Of a DNA stretch of 64,000 nt, positions 6,501 to 58,086 are shown in pieces. Both the position numbers and the translations under genes were made by a program. Every line of letters begins with the position of its first letter. Position 1 is the stretch's first letter. Origin of the DNA: Candidatus Woesearchaeota archaeon (lineage in GTDB: Archaea > Nanobdellota > Nanobdellia > Woesearchaeales > SM23-78); NCBI GenBank assembly GCA_016930415.1, contig JAFGGS010000022.1, positions 16,930-80,929 of the forward strand, read 5' to 3'. The notes beneath the pieces were generated by a model. It ran no database searches. It was not told where the DNA came from and saw nothing but the letters and a program-made list of their open reading frames with translations.

Positions 6501-7622
6501 GTGGCTGTTGTCTTGATGAGGAAGAAGAAAATACTGTTCTTGATATCCGATACTGGCGGAGGCCATCGGGCCTCTGCGAACGCAGTGATCTCCGCGCTTG
6601 AAAGAATGGCTCCTGGAAGGTATGATCTTAAGATGGTGGATTTCTTCAACGTGGGGAATTCCGCAGTGGATGGTGTTATCAAGGGATTCTATTCAAGGGT
6701 TATACAAAGGCATCGCTGGGTGTGGGGACTCACGTTCAGCCTGACGAACAACAGGGTCTTCTGGCGAGCAGTACAGCCGCTCTACAGGATAATCCATGAC
6801 AATATAAGGATGATGATTGATAAGGAGAAGCCTGACTTGGTGGTCTCGATCCATCCGATGGTCAACACAATCACCAAGAAGGTGTTGGATGAACTTGGGC
6901 AAGGGATACCTTTCTTGATAATAACAACAGACCCGGTCACGCTCCACGTGGGTTGGCTTGAGCGAGGAGCTGACTTCACGATCGTGGCCACTGAGGATGC
7001 GAAGAAGTGTTTGATAAGCCTTGGCGTGCAAGAGGCGCGCGTGAAGGTCTTGGGCCTCCCGATCGCTCCTGATTTCTACATCCCTGTACGTGATAAGGGA
7101 GTGGTCAAGGCCAGGTTCGGGCTTAGGAAGGATGTGTTCACTGTGCTTTTCAGCGGTGGCGGGGATGGCGGCGGAAAGATATATCCTGTCGTGAAGAGGC
7201 TTATCAAGGATGCTGCCGGTGAGAGGCTGGACTTGCAGGTCATCGTAGTTTGCGGCAGGAACGAGAAGCTCAGGTCCAAGCTGGCTTCTCTTGGTGTGAT
7301 AGCGATACCTTTCACTGATATGATGCCTGAGCTGATGGGTGTCGTGGACCTGATGGTGATCAAGGCAGGCCCAGGAACGATCGAGGAGAGCATGGCTAGG
7401 GGGTTGCCTATTATTATTACGAGCTACCTCCCAGGCCAGGAGAAGGCGAACATCGATTATGCCCGCAAGAAGTGGAGGGCTTTCTACGAGCCGACTGTCA
7501 AGGGGGCAACTGATAGGATCAAGTCTGAGTTCAGGAGCCCTGCTAAGAGGCATGCACCAGTCAAGGCAGGCGACGCTCCAGTCTATAGGATTGCGAAGTT
7601 CATCAGTTCTATGCTGAAATAG
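6501..7622 (+). CDS. GT28 glycosyltransferase, MGDG-synthase/UgtP-like (diacylglycerol glycosyltransferase)
   Basis: N-terminal ILFLISDTGGGHRASANAV motif characteristic of the MGDG synthase/GT28 family; 373 aa. Confidence 0.6.
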   Translation: MAVVLMRKKKILFLISDTGGGHRASANAVISALERMAPGRYDLKMVDFFNVGNSAVDGVIKGFYSRVIQRHRWVWGLTFSLTNNRVFWRAVQPLYRIIHDNIRMMIDKEKPDLVVSIHPMVNTITKKVLDELGQGIPFLIITTDPVTLHVGWLERGADFTIVATEDAKKCLISLGVQEARVKVLGLPIAPDFYIPVRDKGVVKARFGLRKDVFTVLFSGGGDGGGKIYPVVKRLIKDAAGERLDLQVIVVCGRNEKLRSKLASLGVIAIPFTDMMPELMGVVDLMVIKAGPGTIEESMARGLPIIITSYLPGQEKANIDYARKKWRAFYEPTVKGATDRIKSEFRSPAKRHAPVKAGDAPVYRIAKFISSMLK

Positions 7623-14277: not shown

Positions 14278-14332
14278 CGATAGCAGGCTATAAGCTGCTC
14301 TTTGATCGATTTATACTCGGTGGTGACTTGAT

Positions 14333-14479
14333 ATGAAATGTGACTTGTGCGGAAGCAGGATCGAGACAACCTTTTTAAATAAACCAGTAGGCACCTACGT
14401 CAAGAACGAGAAAGGCAAGAAGAAACTCGTCTGCAGCCACTGCCAGCGAAGCGGCAGGATAAAAGAAGTCAAGCAGTGA
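14333..14479 (+). CDS. small zinc-ribbon protein (48 aa)
   Basis: MKCDLCGS...CSHCQRSG: two CxxC pairs; below ORF-track size cutoff. Confidence 0.4.
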   Translation: MKCDLCGSRIETTFLNKPVGTYVKNEKGKKKLVCSHCQRSGRIKEVKQ

Positions 14480-14512
14480 ACAAGGAAAGCCTTTCAAAAA
14501 ATTTATTTTTGC

Positions 14513-14628
14513 GCCTCTGTAGCATAGTGGTGGTGCGGCTGACTCGTAAGCAAAACATTGTTTTTGAATCTCGAAAACTTTGTTTTCAAGAAATCAGCAG
14601 GTCGGGAGTTCAAATCTCCCCAGAGGCT
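14513..14628 (+). tRNA. tRNA-Thr(CGU) with 44-nt intron at canonical 37/38 position (intron 14549..14592)
   Basis: Acceptor GCCTCTG/CAGAGGC, D-arm GCAT-AGTGGTG-GTGC, anticodon stem GCTGA/TCAGC with loop CT-CGT-A|A, T-arm GGGAG-TTCAAAT-CTCCC, discriminator T; CCA not encoded. Confidence 0.8.
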
Positions 14629-14721
14629 TCATATTCAGAGGGACAAATCCTCAATTAGAGCAAATAGCTTTTTTTAAAACTAATAGTAAACAATATAAAC
14701 CGATTAAACTATCTTTATCTA

Positions 14722-15453
14722 ATGAAACTTAAGAATAAGGTTGCACTAATTACAGGGGCTAGCAGAGGCATCGGGAGAGCGACTGCCTTGCTGTTTGCTA
14801 AAGAAGGTGCAAATATTATTGTTAATTATTTTAAAGCAGAAAACGAAGCCAATTCTGTTGTTCAAGATATTAAAAAGATGGGTGCTGACGCAATCACAAT
14901 TAAGTGTGATGTTTCCAAAGAGAATGAAGTCAAACAAATGGTAGATAAGGCAATTAAAAAATTTGGTAAAATAGATATTCTCGTTAATAATGCAGGTATA
15001 GTTTTTGACGTGCCATTTAAAGACAGGACTGTTGAACATTGGAAAAGAACTTTAGATGTTAATCTTATAGGTGCGTTTATTTGTGCTAAACATGTTACTT
15101 CGCACATGAAAAAAGGGCATATTGTTAATATTGCCTCAACTAATGGAATTAATGCTTGCAGTCCTGAATCTATGGATTATGATGCTTCAAAGGCAGGATT
15201 AATTAGCTTGACTAAAACCCTCGCACAGGCATTAGCACCAAATGTTATGGTAAATTGTGTAGCGCCTGGCTGGGTGGATACGGATATAAATAAAGATTTA
15301 CCAAAAGATTATGTGAAGTCAGAAACACAAAATATTTTATTGAAAAGATTTGGCAAACCTGAAGAAATTGCAAAGACAGTCTTGTTCTTAGTATCAGATG
15401 ATGCAAGTTTTATAACTGGAACAACAGTTGTGGTTGCTGGCGGATATCAATAA
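14722..15453 (+). CDS. fabG: SDR family oxidoreductase, FabG (3-oxoacyl-ACP reductase)-like; low-GC, probably horizontally acquired
   Basis: TGASRGIGRA cofactor motif, NNAG, catalytic Y-x3-K (YDASKAG); gene is about 36% GC versus about 52% for surroundings. Confidence 0.8.
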   Translation: MKLKNKVALITGASRGIGRATALLFAKEGANIIVNYFKAENEANSVVQDIKKMGADAITIKCDVSKENEVKQMVDKAIKKFGKIDILVNNAGIVFDVPFKDRTVEHWKRTLDVNLIGAFICAKHVTSHMKKGHIVNIASTNGINACSPESMDYDASKAGLISLTKTLAQALAPNVMVNCVAPGWVDTDINKDLPKDYVKSETQNILLKRFGKPEEIAKTVLFLVSDDASFITGTTVVVAGGYQ

Positions 15454-15667
15454 CACTACGTTATTTTCTGGATTTATCCTCAATAGAAACCGTAGTTTTT
15501 ATAAGTGCCAGCCGCCTATTAAGGGCTAAAGCCTTAAAATCGGAGGGTCAGAAGTTTAGGGGCTTTTTACGCTGCCGGGGTTAAGCCGTTAGGAGGCTGT
15601 TAATTTTATCTTCTTCTGACGTCATCCTAGAATTCTAGCAGGGGGTGCTCTCTTTATCTATTTTTAT

Positions 15668-16246
15668 CTATTCGTTGAGTCTCCTGAATAAGTCTGTTGG
15701 GAGATAAAGCCTTACATTTCCTGGTTTCCATCGGAACCATCCCTTGACAGTGTCCTTCCTGTAGGGCGCGACTAGTGTGCCGTTGTAGGATTCCATCTGG
15801 AGAAACACTCTGCATGGCGGGATCGCTCTGCTCTTGTATCCGATCTCTTCTCTCAGTTCAAAGAAGATCTTTTCATAATCAGTGCTTCCTATGCATGATT
15901 CCAGGTGCCCTGTGCGTGTGGTTATGGATCCTATTGCTCGTTCCTCTGTGCTGTCTAGCAGGGAGAAGAGCCCTCTGAAGTTTCTTTCGCATAATATCTG
16001 GTATGTTGTTGTCTTGTTTGGATTGACGCTCACGTCTTCAATCACGCTTGATGGTTCCTTGGTCTCTTCTATGGGCAAGAAAGTTATGATTTCTTCTGTT
16101 CTCTCCGACAACTCTCTTTCCAGCTTCCCAAGGTTAATCCATTTCAGGCCGTTGTTTTCCATCGGGTCAAGAAATCCCTTTCGCTTTATATGCTTTGCTT
16201 TTCCAGAGTGGTGAATCGCGCTCGCGTCTTTGCGTTGAAACAACAA
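15668..16246 (-). CDS. hypothetical protein
   Basis: 192-aa ORF, no recognisable motif. Confidence 0.35.
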   Translation of the reverse strand: MLFQRKDASAIHHSGKAKHIKRKGFLDPMENNGLKWINLGKLERELSERTEEIITFLPIEETKEPSSVIEDVSVNPNKTTTYQILCERNFRGLFSLLDSTEERAIGSITTRTGHLESCIGSTDYEKIFFELREEIGYKSRAIPPCRVFLQMESYNGTLVAPYRKDTVKGWFRWKPGNVRLYLPTDLFRRLNE

Positions 16247-16280
16247 AAAATAGTTTTGTGCTTTCTAGATGTCGGCAGCC

Positions 16281-16568
16281 TTATTGCTGTCCTTCTGTGC
16301 TTGTATTTTCCTGCGTCAGGTATTCGCTCACTGCGCTCTTGACTTTCTCAGTCAGCCGATCGCCCGCGTTCTTTCGCAGGAGGAAGGTTGCTCCTAGGCT
16401 TGTCAGGTAGACTACTCCTGCTGCTACTGCCATCTTCTTGCTGTGCTCAGGGTTTGCCCTGTAGCTTCTCATGATGTTCTCAAGGCTCCAGCCAGTCATT
16501 ATGCCTGCTGCTGCTGGCCCTGTCATCCTCTTGTATCCTATGCTTTGCTCTTCGCTCATGTTCTTCAT
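16281..16568 (-). CDS. small Gly/Ala-rich hypothetical protein (paralog of next gene)
   Basis: IGYK...GPAAAGIMTG...NP... pattern shared with 16588..16908 product. Confidence 0.35.
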   Translation of the reverse strand: MKNMSEEQSIGYKRMTGPAAAGIMTGWSLENIMRSYRANPEHSKKMAVAAGVVYLTSLGATFLLRKNAGDRLTEKVKSAVSEYLTQENTSTEGQQ

Positions 16569-16587
16569 CCCCCTTCTTCATCCTTTC

Positions 16588-16908
16588 CTATTGCTTCTTT
16601 GTCTTCTGTTCCTGGTCTCCCCTGCAGTAGTTGCTTATCAGCTTCATCGCAAGGTATCCTAGCGTTGCGCCTATCCCTGTGCTAAAGAGCCTCTCTCCTA
16701 TTGTGTAGGGTTTTCCTGCTTGCTTGCTCACGTATTTCCCTGCTTGGTGGCCTGCGACTCCTCCGACCGCGGCTCCAGTGTATTTCATGGTCTCCTCAGT
16801 CCTGTCCTCAAGGCTTAGGTTTGGGTTCCTGGCCGCGTTCTTCTCTGCTCTGCTCTTTGCGATCCCGCCTATTAGGGCTGCCGCTAATGCGCTTGATTTA
16901 TATCCCAT
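16588..16908 (-). CDS. small glycine-zipper-like hypothetical protein
   Basis: MGYKSSALAAALIGGIAK...GAAVGGVAGHQAGK...GIGATLGYLAMKL glycine-zipper-like segments. Confidence 0.35.
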   Translation of the reverse strand: MGYKSSALAAALIGGIAKSRAEKNAARNPNLSLEDRTEETMKYTGAAVGGVAGHQAGKYVSKQAGKPYTIGERLFSTGIGATLGYLAMKLISNYCRGDQEQKTKKQ

Positions 16909-16926
16909 CTTCTTCTACCTCCGTCT

Positions 16927-17223
16927 TTATTTCCTAGGGTCTGGCATTCCTATTGTTCTCCTGAGAATGGTGTATGCGACTATCTCGGTGGCTTCGATTC
17001 CTAGCTCTTCGACCGCGTTTCTTGGGTTTCCAATGAGTCTCTTGCTTCCTCGTTTGATCGCTTGGTAGATAGGGTCTTGTGGGTCTCCTATGTATTCTTT
17101 CTTGGCTTCCCTTAGCAGTTCTCCGCTGACGTATCCTATCAGGCTTTTCACTGAGAAGCTTCTGCTCGCGTTCTCTTCCACCAGTTCGCTGATGTCTTGT
17201 CCTGGCATCTGTCGGTCCCCCAT
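16927..17223 (-). CDS. small hypothetical protein
   Basis: 98-aa ORF co-directional with two preceding small genes. Confidence 0.3.
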   Translation of the reverse strand: MGDRQMPGQDISELVEENASRSFSVKSLIGYVSGELLREAKKEYIGDPQDPIYQAIKRGSKRLIGNPRNAVEELGIEATEIVAYTILRRTIGMPDPRK

Positions 17224-17380
17224 TCTTTTTTTTCTAGAATGGGTTTGGTTCGGGTGTTTAAAATATCCACCGACGACAAAACCGGAGAAAAAACAAAGAT
17301 GTTGAAAGAAAGAATAGGTTGTTTGCAGGAACAGGACCTGATTCCGGATTTATTTCCAGAATTACAGCGTTAGAATAGTG

Positions 17381-18100
17381 CTATCTCTTGCTTGAAAGCG
17401 CCAATACATCCGTTATGTTGCACATTGAGACTCGCATCTCTGCAGCGTCATCAAAACCGATCCGAGGACAAGCCGTGTTGACCCACGCCTCTACGAAGTT
17501 GAAGTCTTCGAGATTGCGTGGATCTAATGTCTCTGTAGCGAAGAAGTAGAACTCCTTGTCAGGATAAGCGTCCTTGAGTTTCTTGGCGACCTTGAACTGT
17601 TCCTGGCCGGGCTTGACAGATATCACGACACCGATGCACTTGGAAGCCAGTACCTTGGTGAGGTTGCCCTTGTATTTCTTGAGGATGGGCTCGCACTCCT
17701 CAAGACCCATGATCGACACCTTGTCGGCTACTGGGTCGTACCTGATTATCTCTTTGAAGCTCTCCTCGTCCTTCTGCGCCAGTACCAACGCCCTAGGGTG
17801 GAAGTTGCCGTCTCCGATGTATAAGAACGCGTCCGGATCCTCTTCCAGCCTGAGGGCTGCCTTGTAGCTCACGCATCCAAGCATCTGATACTTCTCATTC
17901 GCCCGGCAAGGCTTAGAACTGATTACATCAACTCCGATACTCTCCAGCTGCTTGAGGATTGGTTCTAGTAGGTGGGTGAACTGGACGCTGGCGTAGAGTG
18001 CGATCTTCTTGTGACCTTTGCTTTTCACGTAATCCAACATGTCGGGGCTCAAGGAAATGCTCTTCCCAGTAAACTTCGCCTTTATAAGCATAGTGTCCAT
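17381..18100 (-). CDS. dph2: Dph2 (2-(3-amino-3-carboxypropyl)histidine synthase) C-terminal part, domains 2 and 3
   Basis: Starts MDTMLIKAKF... (ATG 18098-18100) 1 nt after the stop of upstream ORF; contains the domain-2 (SKPCRANE..LGCVSY) and domain-3 (VNTACPRIGFDD) Cys regions of archaeal Dph2. Confidence 0.6.
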   Translation of the reverse strand: MDTMLIKAKFTGKSISLSPDMLDYVKSKGHKKIALYASVQFTHLLEPILKQLESIGVDVISSKPCRANEKYQMLGCVSYKAALRLEEDPDAFLYIGDGNFHPRALVLAQKDEESFKEIIRYDPVADKVSIMGLEECEPILKKYKGNLTKVLASKCIGVVISVKPGQEQFKVAKKLKDAYPDKEFYFFATETLDPRNLEDFNFVEAWVNTACPRIGFDDAAEMRVSMCNITDVLALSSKR

Positions 18101-18101
18101 A

Positions 18102-18380
18102 TTATTCCTCTCCGTTCCAACCGTTCTCTTTAAGGTACTGGTTATGGCCCCACTGCACCAGGAAGTCCACACCTAGCTGTTTCAATCCTTGAGGAACGTC
18201 GCATCCGCCATAACAGCTGCCCATCCAGATCAGCACTTCGGCAGAAGTCTCCTTCCTGATAGAATCGACTATCTCCTTTGCCTTTGGCTTCAAGCCGTCA
18301 GGCAGTTGGATCAAGACAGTCTTATGCCTCTTCTCCTTAATCCTCGCGATCACGCGGGAGAGCTCTAAGTCGTACATCAT
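18102..18380 (-). CDS. dph2: Dph2 N-terminal part, domain 1 (split gene or frameshift)
   Basis: KTVLIQLPDGLKPKAKEIV...WMGSCYGGCDV matches Dph2 domain 1 including the first cluster Cys; ends with TAA at 18102-18104. Confidence 0.6.
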   Translation of the reverse strand: MMYDLELSRVIARIKEKRHKTVLIQLPDGLKPKAKEIVDSIRKETSAEVLIWMGSCYGGCDVPQGLKQLGVDFLVQWGHNQYLKENGWNGEE

Positions 18381-18436
18381 GCCTTGACGTAAAAGAACTC
18401 TCTTTTTAATGTTTTTTGGCCTTATGGCTGTTTGAC

Positions 18437-19210
18437 CTAATGTGATGATGACTTCTCCTTGAAGTAAACGTAGCTAACTATGCATCTATGGCTCGTGTTC
18501 ACGAGTATCTCTTCGCCTGTCAGGCCTTCCACGAACCCTATGCCTCGCGCTGATGGGATGAGGAGCTTCTCTTGCTCTTCTGCACTCATCTCTGCTATGT
18601 TTTTCGGGAACTCCTTCATCTCTGGCTTGTTCTTCGGGTTGAATCCTGGCCCTGCGTCTGTCGCTCTTCCGATGATGTAAGGCTTGGTTATGAGTTGTTC
18701 CATCACTACCTCATCTAGTCTTCTTTCCAGGCTTTCCTCGCGCTGAGCTCTGGAAGCTTCTTCTTCCATCCCTCTTTTCTTGTAGTCGTCTGTGCTGCCT
18801 GCGTGGCTTCCGAATATGACTGCATTGTTGAATATCTCTGATGAGCATATCTCGATGTCTTTCTGGGCGTCGCAGTCATATCCTCTGCGGCCTGCCCTGT
18901 AGGAGAATATGCGGCTCAACGTTTCGTGCAGGTTCCTGTCTGCTTGTGATTTTATCAGCGGGTATGTTCCGCTTGTGGGGGCGTGCACTAGTTGCCTTAG
19001 CCTATCATATCTCTCTAGTTCAGCCCGAAACCACCCTCTAACGAGCGGCTCTGCGTTATCGAGCTTGGCCTCGAAGCCCATTCCGAGGTGTGGGTTCAGG
19101 CGAGAGAAGTCGTATATCTTGACTTCTCCTGAGCTTGCGACTACGCATTGGCTTAGTTCTGTTGGTCTTACGATTCTGCTTCTAGGTCTGGTTTCTGCAG
19201 ACAGATTCAT
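18437..19210 (-). CDS. hypothetical protein
   Basis: 257-aa ORF; no confident family assignment. Confidence 0.35.
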   Translation of the reverse strand: MNLSAETRPRSRIVRPTELSQCVVASSGEVKIYDFSRLNPHLGMGFEAKLDNAEPLVRGWFRAELERYDRLRQLVHAPTSGTYPLIKSQADRNLHETLSRIFSYRAGRRGYDCDAQKDIEICSSEIFNNAVIFGSHAGSTDDYKKRGMEEEASRAQREESLERRLDEVVMEQLITKPYIIGRATDAGPGFNPKNKPEMKEFPKNIAEMSAEEQEKLLIPSARGIGFVEGLTGEEILVNTSHRCIVSYVYFKEKSSSH

Positions 19211-19296
19211 GACTCTATAGTAGGCAAACCAAATATATAAATCTTCTTACGTCATCATACTTTTTTCCGAAATTGTTTCAGATGCTTTTTTCAACA

Positions 19297-19308
19297 AACT
19301 ATTTAAAG
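19297..19308 (+). promoter_or_regulatory. archaeal TATA-box-like element about 27 nt upstream of ATG 19331 (leaderless)
   Basis: aactatttaaag followed by ATG at 19331. Confidence 0.4.
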
Positions 19309-19330
19309 CTAGTAGCCCCTTGTCAAGACC

Positions 19331-50331: not shown

Positions 50332-51090
50332 ATGGGGAATCCGTTTGAGGAGACTAAAAAAAGACTGCGTTTAGCAGAAGAGGAAGCTAATCGTTATAGA
50401 GATTTATCTCTCTGTGTTATCCTTGCTGGATCAGTCGCTTACTCTCCTAATCACGCAGTTACTGAATCCTCAGATTTAGATTTGATTGTTGTATCTGCTG
50501 ATGTAAAAGGTATGCTGTCACTTCTTATTGAGGACTCTCAAGAATTATCTGCTCTTAAAAACAGGTTCTTTGAGGGTTACTGTCTAAAACGTGAGAGCCA
50601 AGGGATCCCTGTGAGCATACATCTCCTTAGTGAAGATGCCTTTGATATTATTAGTAAATGTTTTGTATCTAATATGCGCGTCTACAGGCCAAAACCAAAA
50701 CCTGAGGCCTATTCCTTACATGGATTTGATGGCGCAGTGTATCCTTATTTCATAAAAAATGTGTCCTTGCCGGATTTAAGGGGTGTGCGCACTATAGTTC
50801 CCATATCCTTCATATATGATGATAGATATCATCTAGGAATCCATAGAGACAAGCTTCTTAGCAATCCGAAGATTTTATGCGAATCCGAACAACATGCCTC
50901 TGCTCGTATTGACAAATTATGGGCTGTTGTTGTGGAAAACTTATATGATGAAGCACATAGGCTATATGGTCATCTGGATTTGGGCAGGATGAACGTACTT
51001 AATGCGTTATCGAGGTCTCATAAGATGACGCCAGCTGTCATTGCAGAAATTACTGGCAAGACCTCGTTCTACTTATCTCGTCTCAGATAA
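50332..51090 (+). CDS. Pol-beta-superfamily nucleotidyltransferase of unknown specificity (low GC)
   Basis: GSVAYSPNHAVTESSDLDLIVV = GS..(x)..DxD minimal NTase motif; about 40% GC. Confidence 0.55.
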   Translation: MGNPFEETKKRLRLAEEEANRYRDLSLCVILAGSVAYSPNHAVTESSDLDLIVVSADVKGMLSLLIEDSQELSALKNRFFEGYCLKRESQGIPVSIHLLSEDAFDIISKCFVSNMRVYRPKPKPEAYSLHGFDGAVYPYFIKNVSLPDLRGVRTIVPISFIYDDRYHLGIHRDKLLSNPKILCESEQHASARIDKLWAVVVENLYDEAHRLYGHLDLGRMNVLNALSRSHKMTPAVIAEITGKTSFYLSRLR

Positions 51091-51967
51091 TCTCTCTTCT
51101 GGATGATGAGGGATCGTACATGTCAAACATTATCACGGCAAGATTCTTGCTTTCCGGATTGTTGCCAGGGGAAAAACAGGTCGTGAATCCTATCTTCTCT
51201 TTGTATTTTCCGGATTTTTTCACAGTTTCGTGTATGTGGCCATGCAGGCTTATCTCTGGTATTTTTGTCTCTATTATTTGTCTTACGCCTTTGCTTCCGA
51301 CATGTTCCCTTGTGCTATTCAGGTCTAGGTTGCTGTTGTAGGGTGGTGCGTGTGTCATTAGGATTGTTTTCTTCATTCTCTTTTTTCTGAAGAGTCTCTC
51401 TAAGTCTTTCTCGATTGTATCTTTCCTGTTTTTGGTCTGTATTACCTTCTTTACTAGTTCTCCGTCTTTGCTACAGAATCCTTCTGTTATGAAGTAAGGC
51501 CTATATTCTTTCTCATCAATATATCGGCTGTCTAGTTTCTCCCAATCCTTGTAGATGAAGGGTGATAGCGGCACGAATGAGTATCCTATCAAGTCATAAT
51601 CCTTCGTGAGGGACGCGATCTTGTTGTGTACTTCTTTAAATCCGGCACTCTCGTTTCTTATGAGGAAACTCCTGTTATCCTTGAAATCATCGTTCCCCAT
51701 GATAAGGAATATCTTGACATCCTTCCTTGTTTTTTTGAAGGACTCCTTGGTTCTTTTTATTAAGGGTATTAGCTCGTTCTTGAGGAATGCTTTCTGAAGC
51801 TTTGGTGTCCTTCTTTCTTTATCTTTTGGAGTTATATCGCCTCCTATGATCACCGCGTCTGCTTGTTCTGAGAGTGCCTTCGCGAAAAGCTTCACATATT
51901 GACTTATGTTGCCATGAAGATCTGCAGTGTATATTATTTTGTAGCTCCTTTTTCCCTTGGATTCCAT
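51083..51967 (-). CDS. calcineurin-like metallophosphoesterase (low GC)
   Basis: DLHGN, GGDI, GNDD, HAPP, GHIHE motif series; converges on and overlaps the NTase gene by 8 nt. Confidence 0.7.
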   Translation of the reverse strand: MESKGKRSYKIIYTADLHGNISQYVKLFAKALSEQADAVIIGGDITPKDKERRTPKLQKAFLKNELIPLIKRTKESFKKTRKDVKIFLIMGNDDFKDNRSFLIRNESAGFKEVHNKIASLTKDYDLIGYSFVPLSPFIYKDWEKLDSRYIDEKEYRPYFITEGFCSKDGELVKKVIQTKNRKDTIEKDLERLFRKKRMKKTILMTHAPPYNSNLDLNSTREHVGSKGVRQIIETKIPEISLHGHIHETVKKSGKYKEKIGFTTCFSPGNNPESKNLAVIMFDMYDPSSSRREII

Positions 51968-53274: not shown

Positions 53275-54396
53275 CTAGATGCCTTTGATGCTCTCCTTGA
53301 GCCCTTCGCCGTCCGGCAGGTGCTTTGGCTCTTTCAATCCTTCGAGTTTCTCGAGGACGCCGACGTGCTCGAGCCCTACTTTGCCGTAGAAGAGCTTCCT
53401 CAAGGCGTCCTTCCCGTTCTTTTCAAGGTATTCTTTCACGTCGTAGTATCCTTTCAGGTAGACTAGGTCTTTTGTATATCCGCCGGGCAGGAAGGTATCT
53501 CTTAGTCCTCGCTTCGCGCGCAGCGTCAGGTTCCAGGCCTCTTCATCGCTGAAGAACTTTTTCAGTATCTCAAAGACCTCCCGAAAGCTCTTATATGAGT
53601 TTCCGACGGCAACAACCCTGCCTGCAAAAACTTTCATCCTCTCTTCGCACAAGCATCCATGCATCTCCTCGACGTTCGCTGCCACTCCTTCCTCTGTCAA
53701 GAGGTAGCCTGGGAATCCTGTGATGAACAGCTTGTAATCCTGCGCTTCGCCGTTCGCCGCCCGGAAGACGTGGGTTCCGATCTCATGGACCACTAGGCCT
53801 TTCAGGACGCCAGGAGAGACTGCAGCCCTCTTCCTCACATAGACCTTCTTCGTGGCGGAGTACACTGCTGCAAGGGCTGTTATGTCAGACTCCTCCACCT
53901 TCCAATATGGAAGGCCGCTCTTTGCAAGGGCTTCTTGCATGGCCTTCATTATATCAGGCGATCCGAGTGTCTTGACGTCGCATGTTTTCTCTCCCTTGAC
54001 ACTATTCTCGTGCAGAATCTTGAGTGCCTTCTCCATCAGCCCCTTATCAGGCTTCCCATAAAGCCTCTCTGAGAAGAACGTGAACTCGTCCTTGCCTATG
54101 CTGTCAAGCAATAACGCAGTCGCGGACAATTGCTCCCTCTTCTCGACGAGCAGGGCAGAGTATATGTCTCCCTCCGGCAGCTTTATCTGCTTCAAGGACT
54201 CGAGCTTATCATTGACAAGCACCCACGCGTTCGCAGGCTCGTAAGAAAAAACAGGGTTCTTTGCTTCTCCTGAGAAAAAACGCTTCTTCTCCTCTGAAAC
54301 GTTCAGGGGCGAGAGCTTCGTGAAGAGTTCTGACAGTGAAGACTCGACCTCAAGAAGAACCTTATCATACCTCTTTGCTTCCTCAGATAAGCTCAT
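53275..54396 (-). CDS. putative zinc metallopeptidase (HExxH, DUF1704-like)
   Basis: VVHEIGTHVFRAANGE HExxH motif in 373-aa soluble protein. Confidence 0.4.
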   Translation of the reverse strand: MSLSEEAKRYDKVLLEVESSLSELFTKLSPLNVSEEKKRFFSGEAKNPVFSYEPANAWVLVNDKLESLKQIKLPEGDIYSALLVEKREQLSATALLLDSIGKDEFTFFSERLYGKPDKGLMEKALKILHENSVKGEKTCDVKTLGSPDIMKAMQEALAKSGLPYWKVEESDITALAAVYSATKKVYVRKRAAVSPGVLKGLVVHEIGTHVFRAANGEAQDYKLFITGFPGYLLTEEGVAANVEEMHGCLCEERMKVFAGRVVAVGNSYKSFREVFEILKKFFSDEEAWNLTLRAKRGLRDTFLPGGYTKDLVYLKGYYDVKEYLEKNGKDALRKLFYGKVGLEHVGVLEKLEGLKEPKHLPDGEGLKESIKGI

Positions 54397-57230: not shown

Positions 57231-57841
57231 TTATTGAATGAATTGCATTGCTTTCATTTCGTGCTTTTTATTGCTGAGTCCAACCTCTTTAATCCACTTT
57301 CTAAGTTCTTTCTTTCTGTTCATTTGAACCCTGACTTTTCCTTTTCCGATTTGATAGATGCCGAAATTGAATCCCATCTCTTCAAGAATCCTTATGAACT
57401 GTTTTTGCATTGGTGAAGGACCTATTTTCATCTTCAGTCTTGGATACTTTGTGCCATTGTTATTGGTGATAACTAAACAATCATCTGTGTCAAAATATCC
57501 TCTTAAAACCTGCGCTTGATATTTGTTTTCAAAAATCCAGTCTGGGACTTTCGCACGATTCCATTTCGGCGATGGTTTTAGCCCGACTTCATGAGTTATC
57601 TCTCTGATTTTCTCTCTGTTGAAGATATATAGATTGGCAGTATTCTCTTTTCTCCTAGATTCTTTCTTTACTTTTACGCAGAACATTCTTTTCAACGCTT
57701 CTTCTGTTTGGAGAAGTATTATTTGTCATCTTTTGAGTTAAAAGATATCTTGATCCTGGGATTATTTGGATAACTAATGTATCCATCTCCCAACATGATG
57801 CCTATAAATTCTGCGAGTTCCGGAGTTAATTTTGTTTTCAT
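57231..57841 (-). pseudogene. LAGLIDADG homing endonuclease, frameshifted (two motifs in different frames)
   Basis: Frame 1 from ATG 57841: MKTKLTPELAEFIGIMLGDGYISYPNN...KDDK-stop (motif 1); a different frame continues QIILLQTEEALKRMFC...VLRGYFDTDDCLV (motif 2) to 57231; AT-rich. Confidence 0.6.
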
Positions 57842-57953: not shown

Positions 57954-58086
57954 TAGCGGGGGGTAGATTTGAACTACCGACCTCCGGGTCTCTCAAAGGA
58001 GTCTCGTTCTCATATTTATGAGCCTTCCGCACCAGAAACATTTACTTTTCTGATTCGACGGGCACTCCTAGCTGCCCTACCCCGCT
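57954..58086 (-). tRNA. class II (long variable arm) tRNA with about 48-nt intron; anticodon region non-canonical (Leu-CAG if loop is ATCAGAA, with G27-G43 mismatch)
   Basis: Acceptor AGCGGGG/CCCCGCT, D-arm GGGC...GCCC, anticodon-stem halves TCGAA...TTTGA separated by insert, variable arm GACC-CGGA-GGTC, T-arm GGTAG-TTCAAAT-CTACC. Confidence 0.55.

Follow-up and report, generated by a model that had tools for sequence, protein, structure and literature searches.

FabG, FabI and FabZ homologs have been reported in metagenome-assembled genomes (MAGs) of Woesearchaeota and other DPANN archaea, where their best matches are to DPANN and then to bacteria (PMC10936187), and bacterial-type fatty-acid genes have been reported in Woesearchaeota (PMC8204110). 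Moreover, a characterised archaeal FabG homolog reduces ketoacyl-CoA in a pathway that is independent of acyl carrier protein (ACP) (bioRxiv 10.1101/2024.07.05.601840). Here we analysed a 64,000-nucleotide (nt) stretch of DNA from a Candidatus Woesearchaeota archaeon (GenBank assembly GCA_016930415.1, contig JAFGGS010000022.1, positions 16,930 to 80,929 of the forward strand), called the window below and numbered from its first letter, which carries at 14722–15453 (+) a FabG-like short-chain dehydrogenase/reductase (SDR) gene downstream of a tRNA-Thr gene. An earlier note on this DNA, made from the letters alone, had found a FabG-type reductase odd for an archaeon, an impression that the published cases dispel; FabG-like genes in Woesearchaeota are already on record and the present gene adds a well-characterised new case to a familiar phenomenon. 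It belongs to the same family and the same host group as the published DPANN genes and its best matches are again DPANN, then bacteria, but it differs from them in being solitary and in having demonstrably arrived only recently, its GC content still 15 points lower than the host's. We put at roughly 0.8 the probability that a ~0.8-kb segment, consisting of the SDR gene and its own archaeal-type promoter, was horizontally acquired by this 50%-GC woesearchaeote from a low-GC (roughly 28–36%) DPANN archaeon, the donor most likely being another member of the Woesearchaeota/Nanoarchaeota radiation.

Composition and relatives of the SDR gene

The SDR gene has a GC content of 35.1% (0.46, 0.35 and 0.25 at the three codon positions; third-position GC, GC3, 0.246) in a window of 50.1% GC, close to the 36% and 52% that the earlier note had given. 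The 51 other open reading frames (ORFs) of the window have a mean GC of 0.507 (standard deviation (sd) 0.037) and a mean GC3 of 0.640 (sd 0.090); the SDR gene is the most extreme ORF of the window, with z-scores of −4.2 for GC and −4.4 for GC3, which bears out the A/T-biased codons described before. The low-GC stretch spans ~14630 to 15500, and the ORFs past the SDR gene have a host-like GC3 of 0.54–0.67, leaving it as the sole compositionally foreign gene in the variable segment described below. Codon usage was also scored with two models, one derived from host genes and the other from a 28%-GC Woesearchaeota contig. Expressed in bits per codon, the log-likelihood difference (host minus low-GC model) is −0.75 for the SDR gene and +1.03 (sd 0.39) for host genes; the codon usage of the SDR gene suits low-GC DPANN genomes and not the host.

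A search of 5.8 billion proteins returned closest non-self matches that are 92, 86, 86, 84, 81, 80 and 79% identical, and the named ones among these are Woesearchaeota, plus one labelled 'Marsarchaeota'. The loci that carry the closest copies are listed with their amino acid (aa) and nucleotide identities.

L007/L008: 92% aa, 88.5% nt; gene 33% GC, flanks 36–37%; family-B polymerase upstream, ISL3 fragments downstream (L007)
L001/L002 (Woesearchaeota GCA_053576775): 86% aa, 83% nt; gene 31% GC, flanks 28–29%; RNase P p30 in the locus, TrmB and peptidase S51 adjoining
L003: 86% aa, 83% nt; gene 34% GC, flanks 33.5%; archaeal S13-S4-S11-RpoD gene order
L004–L006: 81% aa, 77% nt; gene 35% GC, flanks 32–34%; type IV pilus-like genes
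L009–L012: 79% aa, 74% nt; gene 43% GC, flanks 47–48%; RFC and NUDIX genes

In the four low-GC genomes the GC of the SDR gene equals that of its surroundings, i.e. the gene is compositionally native there, and it lies below that of the surroundings in L009–L012 (47–48% GC) and in the window genome (50% GC). No two of the six genomes have the gene in the same neighbourhood. Every homolog of at least 79% identity whose context can be judged is archaeal, as indicated by RNase P p30, the S13-S4-S11-RpoD order, RFC or Woesearchaeota labels. Of the 28–36%-GC contigs that carry the copies at 81–92% aa identity, three have archaeal marker genes. Among GTDB species representatives, a wider clade at 58–70% identity takes in Woesearchaeota, Nanoarchaeota and members of the candidate phyla radiation (CPR), namely Parcubacteria (70%), Patescibacteria (64%) and Saccharibacteria (62%). 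Outside this DPANN and CPR clade, Mycoplasmatota reach 53% and all else 47% or less (Acholeplasma/Bacillota 44–46%).

In a neighbour-joining tree the window copy is nested in a tight low-GC subclade with L007, L001, L003 and L004, of which L001 and L003 carry archaeal markers; the subclade lies inside the DPANN and CPR clade, with Mycoplasmatota and Bacillota outside. Because of this nesting among low-GC archaeal copies, the proximate donor was probably a low-GC DPANN archaeon. The Firmicutes-like or directly bacterial affinity that the earlier note had considered does not agree with these identities, since the judgeable homologs of at least 79% identity are archaeal and bacteria appear only at 70% or less (CPR), with Mycoplasmatota and Bacillota at 53% or less; a bacterial origin is possible only for the SDR family as a whole. 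The expectation that a native gene would have archaeal best homologs of similar GC held in its first part only. The best homologs are archaeal, but the GC of the closest relatives' genomes fits the gene and not the host, and this outcome therefore supports transfer.

At 60–70% identity the SDR clade is common to DPANN (L014, L017 and L025) and CPR/Patescibacteria (L015, L018 and L020). This sharing, together with the sharp drop to 53% or less elsewhere, suggests that the family may have been exchanged between domains, by two ultra-small radiations. Ignavibacteriae- and Methanosarcinales-labelled contigs inside the clade may be misbinned.

The probable transferred unit and its upstream element

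The locus is composed of the following features.

14513–14628 (+): native, intron-containing tRNA-Thr(CGU) gene; Rfam RF00005, 55 bits (gathering score 29), cloverleaf fold
14629–14663 (no strand): spacer of uncertain origin between tRNA-Thr and the donor-homologous segment; left junction in or beside it
14664–14721 (+): upstream part of the transferred unit, with a T-run (14669–14675) and a promoter-like element (14686–14721)
14722–15453 (+): SDR gene, 243 aa, FabG/glucose-1-dehydrogenase-like group, read as horizontally acquired (Pfam, composition, homology)
15454–15667 (no strand): intergenic region between the SDR gene and a convergent orphan ORF; T-run (15462–15468) just past the stop codon
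15668–16246 (−): orphan ORF, 192 aa if counted from the first start codon, 164 aa as annotated; self-match only

BLASTN homology to the related loci begins at 14669 in L003 and at 14684–14686 in L001, L004 and L007, and its right limit is the stop codon at 15453; the shared DNA is the ORF plus about 37–55 nt upstream. The downstream flanks of the six copies are unalignable, homology stopping at the stop codon. As homology is limited to the ORF and this upstream stretch, the unit is one promoter-plus-gene segment of ~0.8 kb. The T-run at 14669–14675 is common to L001, L003 and L007 and may be the left edge of the unit. By BLASTN, the spacer at 14629–14663 has no similarity to any fetched locus; the wider interval 14629–14684 is 29% GC. 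The right junction can be placed in about the first 50 nt of 15454–15667, and the remainder of that region is ~50% GC and host-like. This intergenic region gave no Rfam match at E values up to 1 and has an RNA fold z-score of +0.47.

The 36 nt preceding the ATG are conserved like coding sequence and read GTAAACAATATAAA-NN-GATTRAACTAT... in the related copies. The GTAAACAATATAAA portion, at 14686–14699, resembles a B recognition element (BRE)/TATA box; its TATA-like part (14692–14699) ends 22 nt before the ATG, and there is no Shine-Dalgarno sequence in the 36-nt element. When the upstream regions of 16 copies were compared, an AT-rich box stood at equal distance in the more distant archaeal copies too. 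Archaeal promoters have a TATA box centred about 26–27 nt upstream of the start site, and from this general spacing the upstream element is predicted to be an archaeal promoter that would give a leaderless or near-leaderless mRNA starting at about 14719–14722. An exact-pattern search of metagenome contigs for the conserved promoter element returned 0 matches, the collection evidently being without the JGI-derived L007, which matches it.

By three-point distances, the window copy has diverged by ~8% at the nucleotide level since it and the L007 lineage separated. Polarised substitutions number 47 on the window branch (34 AT-to-GC versus 7 GC-to-AT) and 22 on the L007 branch. Third positions on the window branch account for 27 AT-to-GC and 4 GC-to-AT changes, a net GC3 rise of ~0.09 toward the host mean of 0.64. 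Read as amelioration, these counts would tentatively suggest that the SDR gene has covered only about a fifth of the distance to the composition of the host.

Synteny, the tRNA-Thr flank and alternative explanations

The M50 protease of the host has a best non-self match of 63% among the 5.8 billion proteins searched, and compared with the fetched relatives the identities are 56–59% for M50, 52–56% for UbiB, 61–63% for Dph2 and 70% for AlaRS. With core proteins at no more than 63–70% and an SDR match of 92% aa and 88.5% nt in an unrelated genome, vertical inheritance of the SDR gene is impossible. The relatives L094, L096/L097, L098 and L101 (36–41% GC) retain the order M50, small Zn-ribbon ORF and tRNA-Thr(CGU), and most also retain UbiB further on, as L096/L097 do AlaRS. 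Two synteny blocks are conserved: M50, the Zn-ribbon ORF and tRNA-Thr make up the first, and UbiB, a small ORF and AlaRS the second. What lies 3' of tRNA-Thr differs from one genome to the next.

L096: 168 bp without genes from tRNA-Thr to UbiB
L098: two unrelated genes from tRNA-Thr to UbiB
L094: four unrelated genes from tRNA-Thr to UbiB
L101: an unrelated 211-aa ORF after tRNA-Thr, then a split Dph2
Window, 14629–19330: SDR, four or five orphan minus-strand ORFs and a split Dph2, from tRNA-Thr to UbiB

The SDR gene is absent after tRNA-Thr in all of these syntenic relatives, and the 3' flank of tRNA-Thr borders a variable segment. The horizontal acquisition of a cargo gene, which the earlier note had proposed, is supported alike by composition, codon usage, phylogeny and synteny. 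The segment would have landed in the variable stretch that starts right after tRNA-Thr(CGU), between the two conserved blocks. The most likely insertion route is not site-specific: illegitimate or microhomology recombination, following DNA uptake, would have placed the segment in a permissive variable intergenic zone.

The intron-containing tRNA-Thr, correctly recognised in the earlier note, ends 93 nt before the SDR ATG, where about 90 nt had been stated. ARAGORN found only a tRNA-Ser in the window and missed this gene, and the Rfam tRNA model was used in its place. The Rfam alignment shows a 46-nt insert in the anticodon loop, which reads CUCGUAA and gives the anticodon CGU; the intron of ~44 nt (14550–14593) is 27% GC, versus 57% for the exons, and the sequence folds into a cloverleaf with an intron hairpin (z = −3.4). 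This gene is the ortholog of the tRNA-Thr that follows the M50 protease and the small Zn-ribbon ORF in the relatives. Rfam detects the same tRNA at the syntenic place in L094, L096 and L098, with the acceptor stem identical or nearly so; that of L101 was identified by eye, Rfam giving no match there. The introns of the orthologs differ per relative (L094 7096–7182, L096 6915–6999, L098 6870–6955). In the Rfam alignment the window gene has an insert of 46 nt, and L096 and L098 each have one of 14 nt, while the L094 intron appears to be placed within the anticodon stem, a non-canonical position. At L101 1040–1247 the tRNA-Thr gene spans 149 nt with a very long intron (~77 nt).

Foreign-composition DNA directly 3' of a tRNA gene, in a segment whose content varies among relatives, is a genomic-island trait and likens the locus to tRNA-adjacent islands and integrative elements. 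The earlier note had seen here a possible remnant of an integrated element. In this reading an integrase would have acted site-specifically at the 3' end of tRNA-Thr, and a single cargo gene would survive. Three observations in the window and its relatives fit this: the 93-nt distance, the varying gene content after tRNA-Thr, and a second tRNA-like gene (57954–58086, −) that is directly followed by a low-GC ORF. Moreover, L101 carries an exact 12-nt direct repeat of the tRNA-Thr 3' end (CCTCCAGAGGCT) 48 nt downstream, with a degenerate T-arm before the repeat, in the manner of an attachment (att) scar; it may record a past integration or excision, and integration at tRNA-Thr may have occurred in the lineage. 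Against a remnant at the window locus stands the absence of any integrase, recombinase or transposase domain in the ORFs between tRNA-Thr and UbiB (Pfam and PHROGs for the ORFs at 14333–19210, NCBIfam for the SDR and the 192-aa ORF). In the search for left and right attachment sites, the tRNA 3' end did not recur in either orientation within the 64 kb: a 25-mer and a 16-mer of it, with up to 3 mismatches, matched only themselves, and blastn-short with both tRNA halves gave nothing above chance in 14.6–20 kb. Repeats within 14300–16400 were at chance level only, e.g. an AT-rich direct repeat (14704–14721 and 15653–15670, 83%) and an inverted 16-mer (15690–15705, 81%). A single foreign gene of ~0.8 kb is followed by ORFs of host-like GC3, and in the five other SDR-bearing genomes that were checked closely no tRNA lies within 3 kb of the cassette, so that it does not itself target tRNA genes. 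The locus is in these respects unlike tRNA-adjacent islands; we regard an integrase-derived remnant as unlikely, and a link between the tRNA flank and the insertion as a minority possibility.

Integron gene cassettes are known in bacteria and reportedly also occur in archaeal MAGs. Like the SDR unit, they are single-gene mobile units found in many genomic contexts; unlike them, the unit has its own promoter upstream, and it lacks a conserved recombination site downstream as well as intI and a cassette array. An attC site or structured RNA in 15454–15667 was rejected (hairpin z = −1.55, with 14 of 200 shuffles folding as well, and unalignable flanks), although no dedicated attC model was used and weak attC-like sites are possible. 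Nor did we find a transposase or flanking terminal inverted repeats at the SDR gene in the window, as an insertion sequence or composite transposon would have. Fragments of an ISL3-family transposase (42-, 110- and 30-aa ORFs) occupy L007 3362–3943 (−), starting 21 nt past the stop of the closest SDR homolog, and possibly hint at how the cassette moves in some genomes. A virus as vector was also rejected, IMG/VR giving only 30%-identical SDRs.

Direct acquisition from a bacterium, whether a CPR/Patescibacteria neighbour, a low-GC Firmicute or a member of the Mycoplasmatota, is very unlikely. It would account for the mixing of DPANN with Parcubacteria, Patescibacteria and Saccharibacteria in the 58–70% clade and for Mycoplasmatota and Acholeplasma/Bacillota coming next, and in DPANN the family may ultimately go back to bacteria, as PMC10936187 also suggests. 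However, the best named bacterial copy is just 70% identical, all copies of at least 79% with judgeable context are archaeal, and the 36-nt upstream element, with a TATA-like box and no Shine-Dalgarno sequence, is common to the window copy, L007, L001, L003 and L004. An assembly or binning artefact, with reads from another, low-GC DPANN organism of the same sample built into the contig, is barely credible: the source is a MAG and low-GC DPANN with related genes are common in such samples, but the contig continues on either side of the foreign piece with DNA of host type and with conserved gene order, and a chimera would require two precise joins ~0.8 kb apart, at which there are no repeats. 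Furthermore, the exact SDR protein turned up on this organism's contigs and no others, the Logan assembly SRR13394437 (locus L013) is identical over 2.5 kb across both junctions, and the AT-to-GC excess on the window branch also counts against an artefact. That the gene is native and owes its low GC to gene-specific selection or expression-linked codon bias is effectively refuted. Nothing specific to the SDR speaks for it; a few other window ORFs have lowered GC as well, but the gene is 88.5% identical at the nucleotide level to one of an unrelated genome whereas neighbouring core proteins reach only 63–70%, it is missing from the relatives' syntenic site, and the low GC extends into the non-coding upstream element.

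Several points weigh against acquisition from a low-GC DPANN donor. The neighbour-joining tree has no support values. The archaeal identity of L007/L008 rests on the family-B polymerase neighbour and the shared upstream element, and NCBIfam labels this polymerase only 'DNA polymerase II', a label that does not fix the domain of life. The CPR copies at 62–70% identity leave slight room for an unsampled bacterial intermediary. An AT-to-GC excess is present on the L007 branch too, though weaker (14 to 3), so that part of the signal stems from the base composition of the outgroups, which are very AT-rich, and amelioration is only suggestive. There is no very close host relative (e.g. >90% average nucleotide identity) and hence no true empty site, the junctions being known to ~40–50 nt; JGI metagenome contigs searched with the M50 neighbour for an empty site yielded no confirmed relative. 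Finally, the Logan assembly may share reads with the MAG and is not necessarily independent.

The encoded enzyme and other features of the window

The SDR protein matches the Pfam families adh_short_C2 (PF13561, 3.4e-67, residues 12–242) and adh_short (PF00106, 1.2e-57), and its motifs TGASRGIG (residues 11–18) and NNAG (89–92) and the catalytic N114, S139 and Y153-x3-K157 are all intact. Like bacterial FabG (PDB 2uvd, 4rzh and 3osu, full-length alignments at 1e-58 to 1e-52) it has the Rossmann-fold motifs and the N-S-Y-K tetrad; the best solved-structure matches, both full-length, are FabG 2uvd (1e-58) and Bacillus glucose 1-dehydrogenases (1e-49). Unlike bacterial FabG, the SDR fails the FabG equivalog cut-offs (TIGR01830, 240 versus 297.75; NF004198, 223 versus 296; NF004197, 210.5 versus 332; NF004199, 197.3 versus 301), is without a fab operon or ACP context, and passes a glucose 1-dehydrogenase subfamily model (NF005559, 240.1 versus 215) as it does a FabG one (NF009466, 232.9 versus 222), a subfamily model such as NF005559 defining no substrate. 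The glucose-1-dehydrogenase model NF006493 failed (210 versus 420), and the NCBI annotation of the protein (MBN1793272.1) is 'glucose 1-dehydrogenase'. No genes for type II fatty acid synthesis (FabZ, FabI), ACP or the methylerythritol phosphate (MEP) pathway were found among the scanned window ORFs (a few long ORFs being left out), and no fab, ACP or MEP neighbours adjoin the SDR in L001, L003, L004, L007 or L009; the gene is solitary in every genome examined. Since it is intact and all catalytic and cofactor motifs are kept, it probably encodes a working NAD(P)(H)-dependent ketoreductase or dehydrogenase, produced from a leaderless transcript. Its sequence is compatible with 3-oxoacyl-CoA/ACP, a sugar or another carbonyl as the substrate.

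Neighbouring genes of the window include archaeal CCA-adding enzyme, Dph2, Rpb7-like RpoE and AlaRS. The 192-aa orphan ORF had only itself as a match among the 5.8 billion proteins and gave no Pfam, NCBIfam or PHROG match. It opens a run of minus-strand ORFs (15668–17223 and 18437–19210; 192, 95, 106, 98 and 257 aa) that have no family matches and no counterpart in the syntenic relatives. The Dph2 (diphthamide synthase) gene is split into a 92-aa N-terminal ORF (18102–18380, −) and a 239-aa C-terminal ORF (17381–18100, −) in different frames. L101 carries the same split (92 + 240 aa, 61–63% identity), so the split is conserved between the two genomes and does not come from misassembly. The lineage-specific minus-strand ORFs, together with the split Dph2, fill the variable segment from tRNA-Thr to UbiB.

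Elsewhere in the window, the tRNA-like gene at 57954–58086 (−), which ARAGORN and Rfam missed, has a 7-bp acceptor stem (AGCGGGG...CCCCGCU) with an A1:U72 pair. Its D and T arms are clear, the loop CUCAUAA gives the anticodon CAU, and the central region holds two extra insertions (fold z = −3.1). An A1:U72 pair is typical of archaeal initiator tRNA, and the gene is probably a tRNA-Met or initiator tRNA-Met with two introns. About 115 nt 3' of it lies a 36%-GC LAGLIDADG homing-endonuclease-like ORF (57231–57840, −) that likewise has the codon preferences of low-GC DPANN. A stop interrupts it, leaving the first motif, LAEFIGIMLGDG, in a 39-codon ORF (57840–57721) and the rest as the ORF 57231–57695, a weak LAGLIDADG_3 match. 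A 40%-GC island at 50332–51967 holds a 252-aa ORF with no Pfam match, GC3 0.34 and donor-like codon usage, and a convergent, overlapping metallophosphoesterase of GC3 0.49; no tRNA was detected nearby. Two further genes are unexpected in DPANN, namely an MGDG-synthase-like glycosyltransferase (6501–7622, +; PF06925, 3e-21), a bacterial/plastid type of glycolipid enzyme, and a MATCAP domain protein (microtubule-associated tyrosine carboxypeptidase; 53275–54396, −; PF08014, 2e-48).

A more speculative extension, on which we would offer long but not hopeless odds, is that the SDR gene and its 36-nt promoter are a self-sufficient single-gene module that circulates among DPANN (28–50% GC) and more distantly CPR, arriving at a new site each time without a recognisable recombinase, and that tRNA 3' flanks are preferred landing sites in this woesearchaeote. 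The landing-site idea is based on two of the three tRNA-like genes in the window having a low-GC foreign ORF within about 90–115 nt, and on the att-like scar at the tRNA-Thr of a relative. If true, this would point to an undescribed way in which ultra-small archaea acquire single genes, directed to the flanks of tRNA genes.

Acquisition of the SDR gene from a low-GC DPANN archaeon, as favoured here, would be a clear but ordinary gene transfer that does not change what is known of archaeal lipids or of integration mechanisms. It nevertheless counsels caution, because this SDR is solitary, falls below the FabG equivalog thresholds and moves on its own: a 'bacterial-type FabG in an archaeon' is not evidence of bacterial lipid synthesis. 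The locus may also serve as a calibration case for the detection of horizontal gene transfer and for amelioration rates in genomes known only from metagenomes. For the DPANN themselves, it would represent well-documented recent gene flow within the group, with the promoter carried along and donor-type genomes that can be identified.

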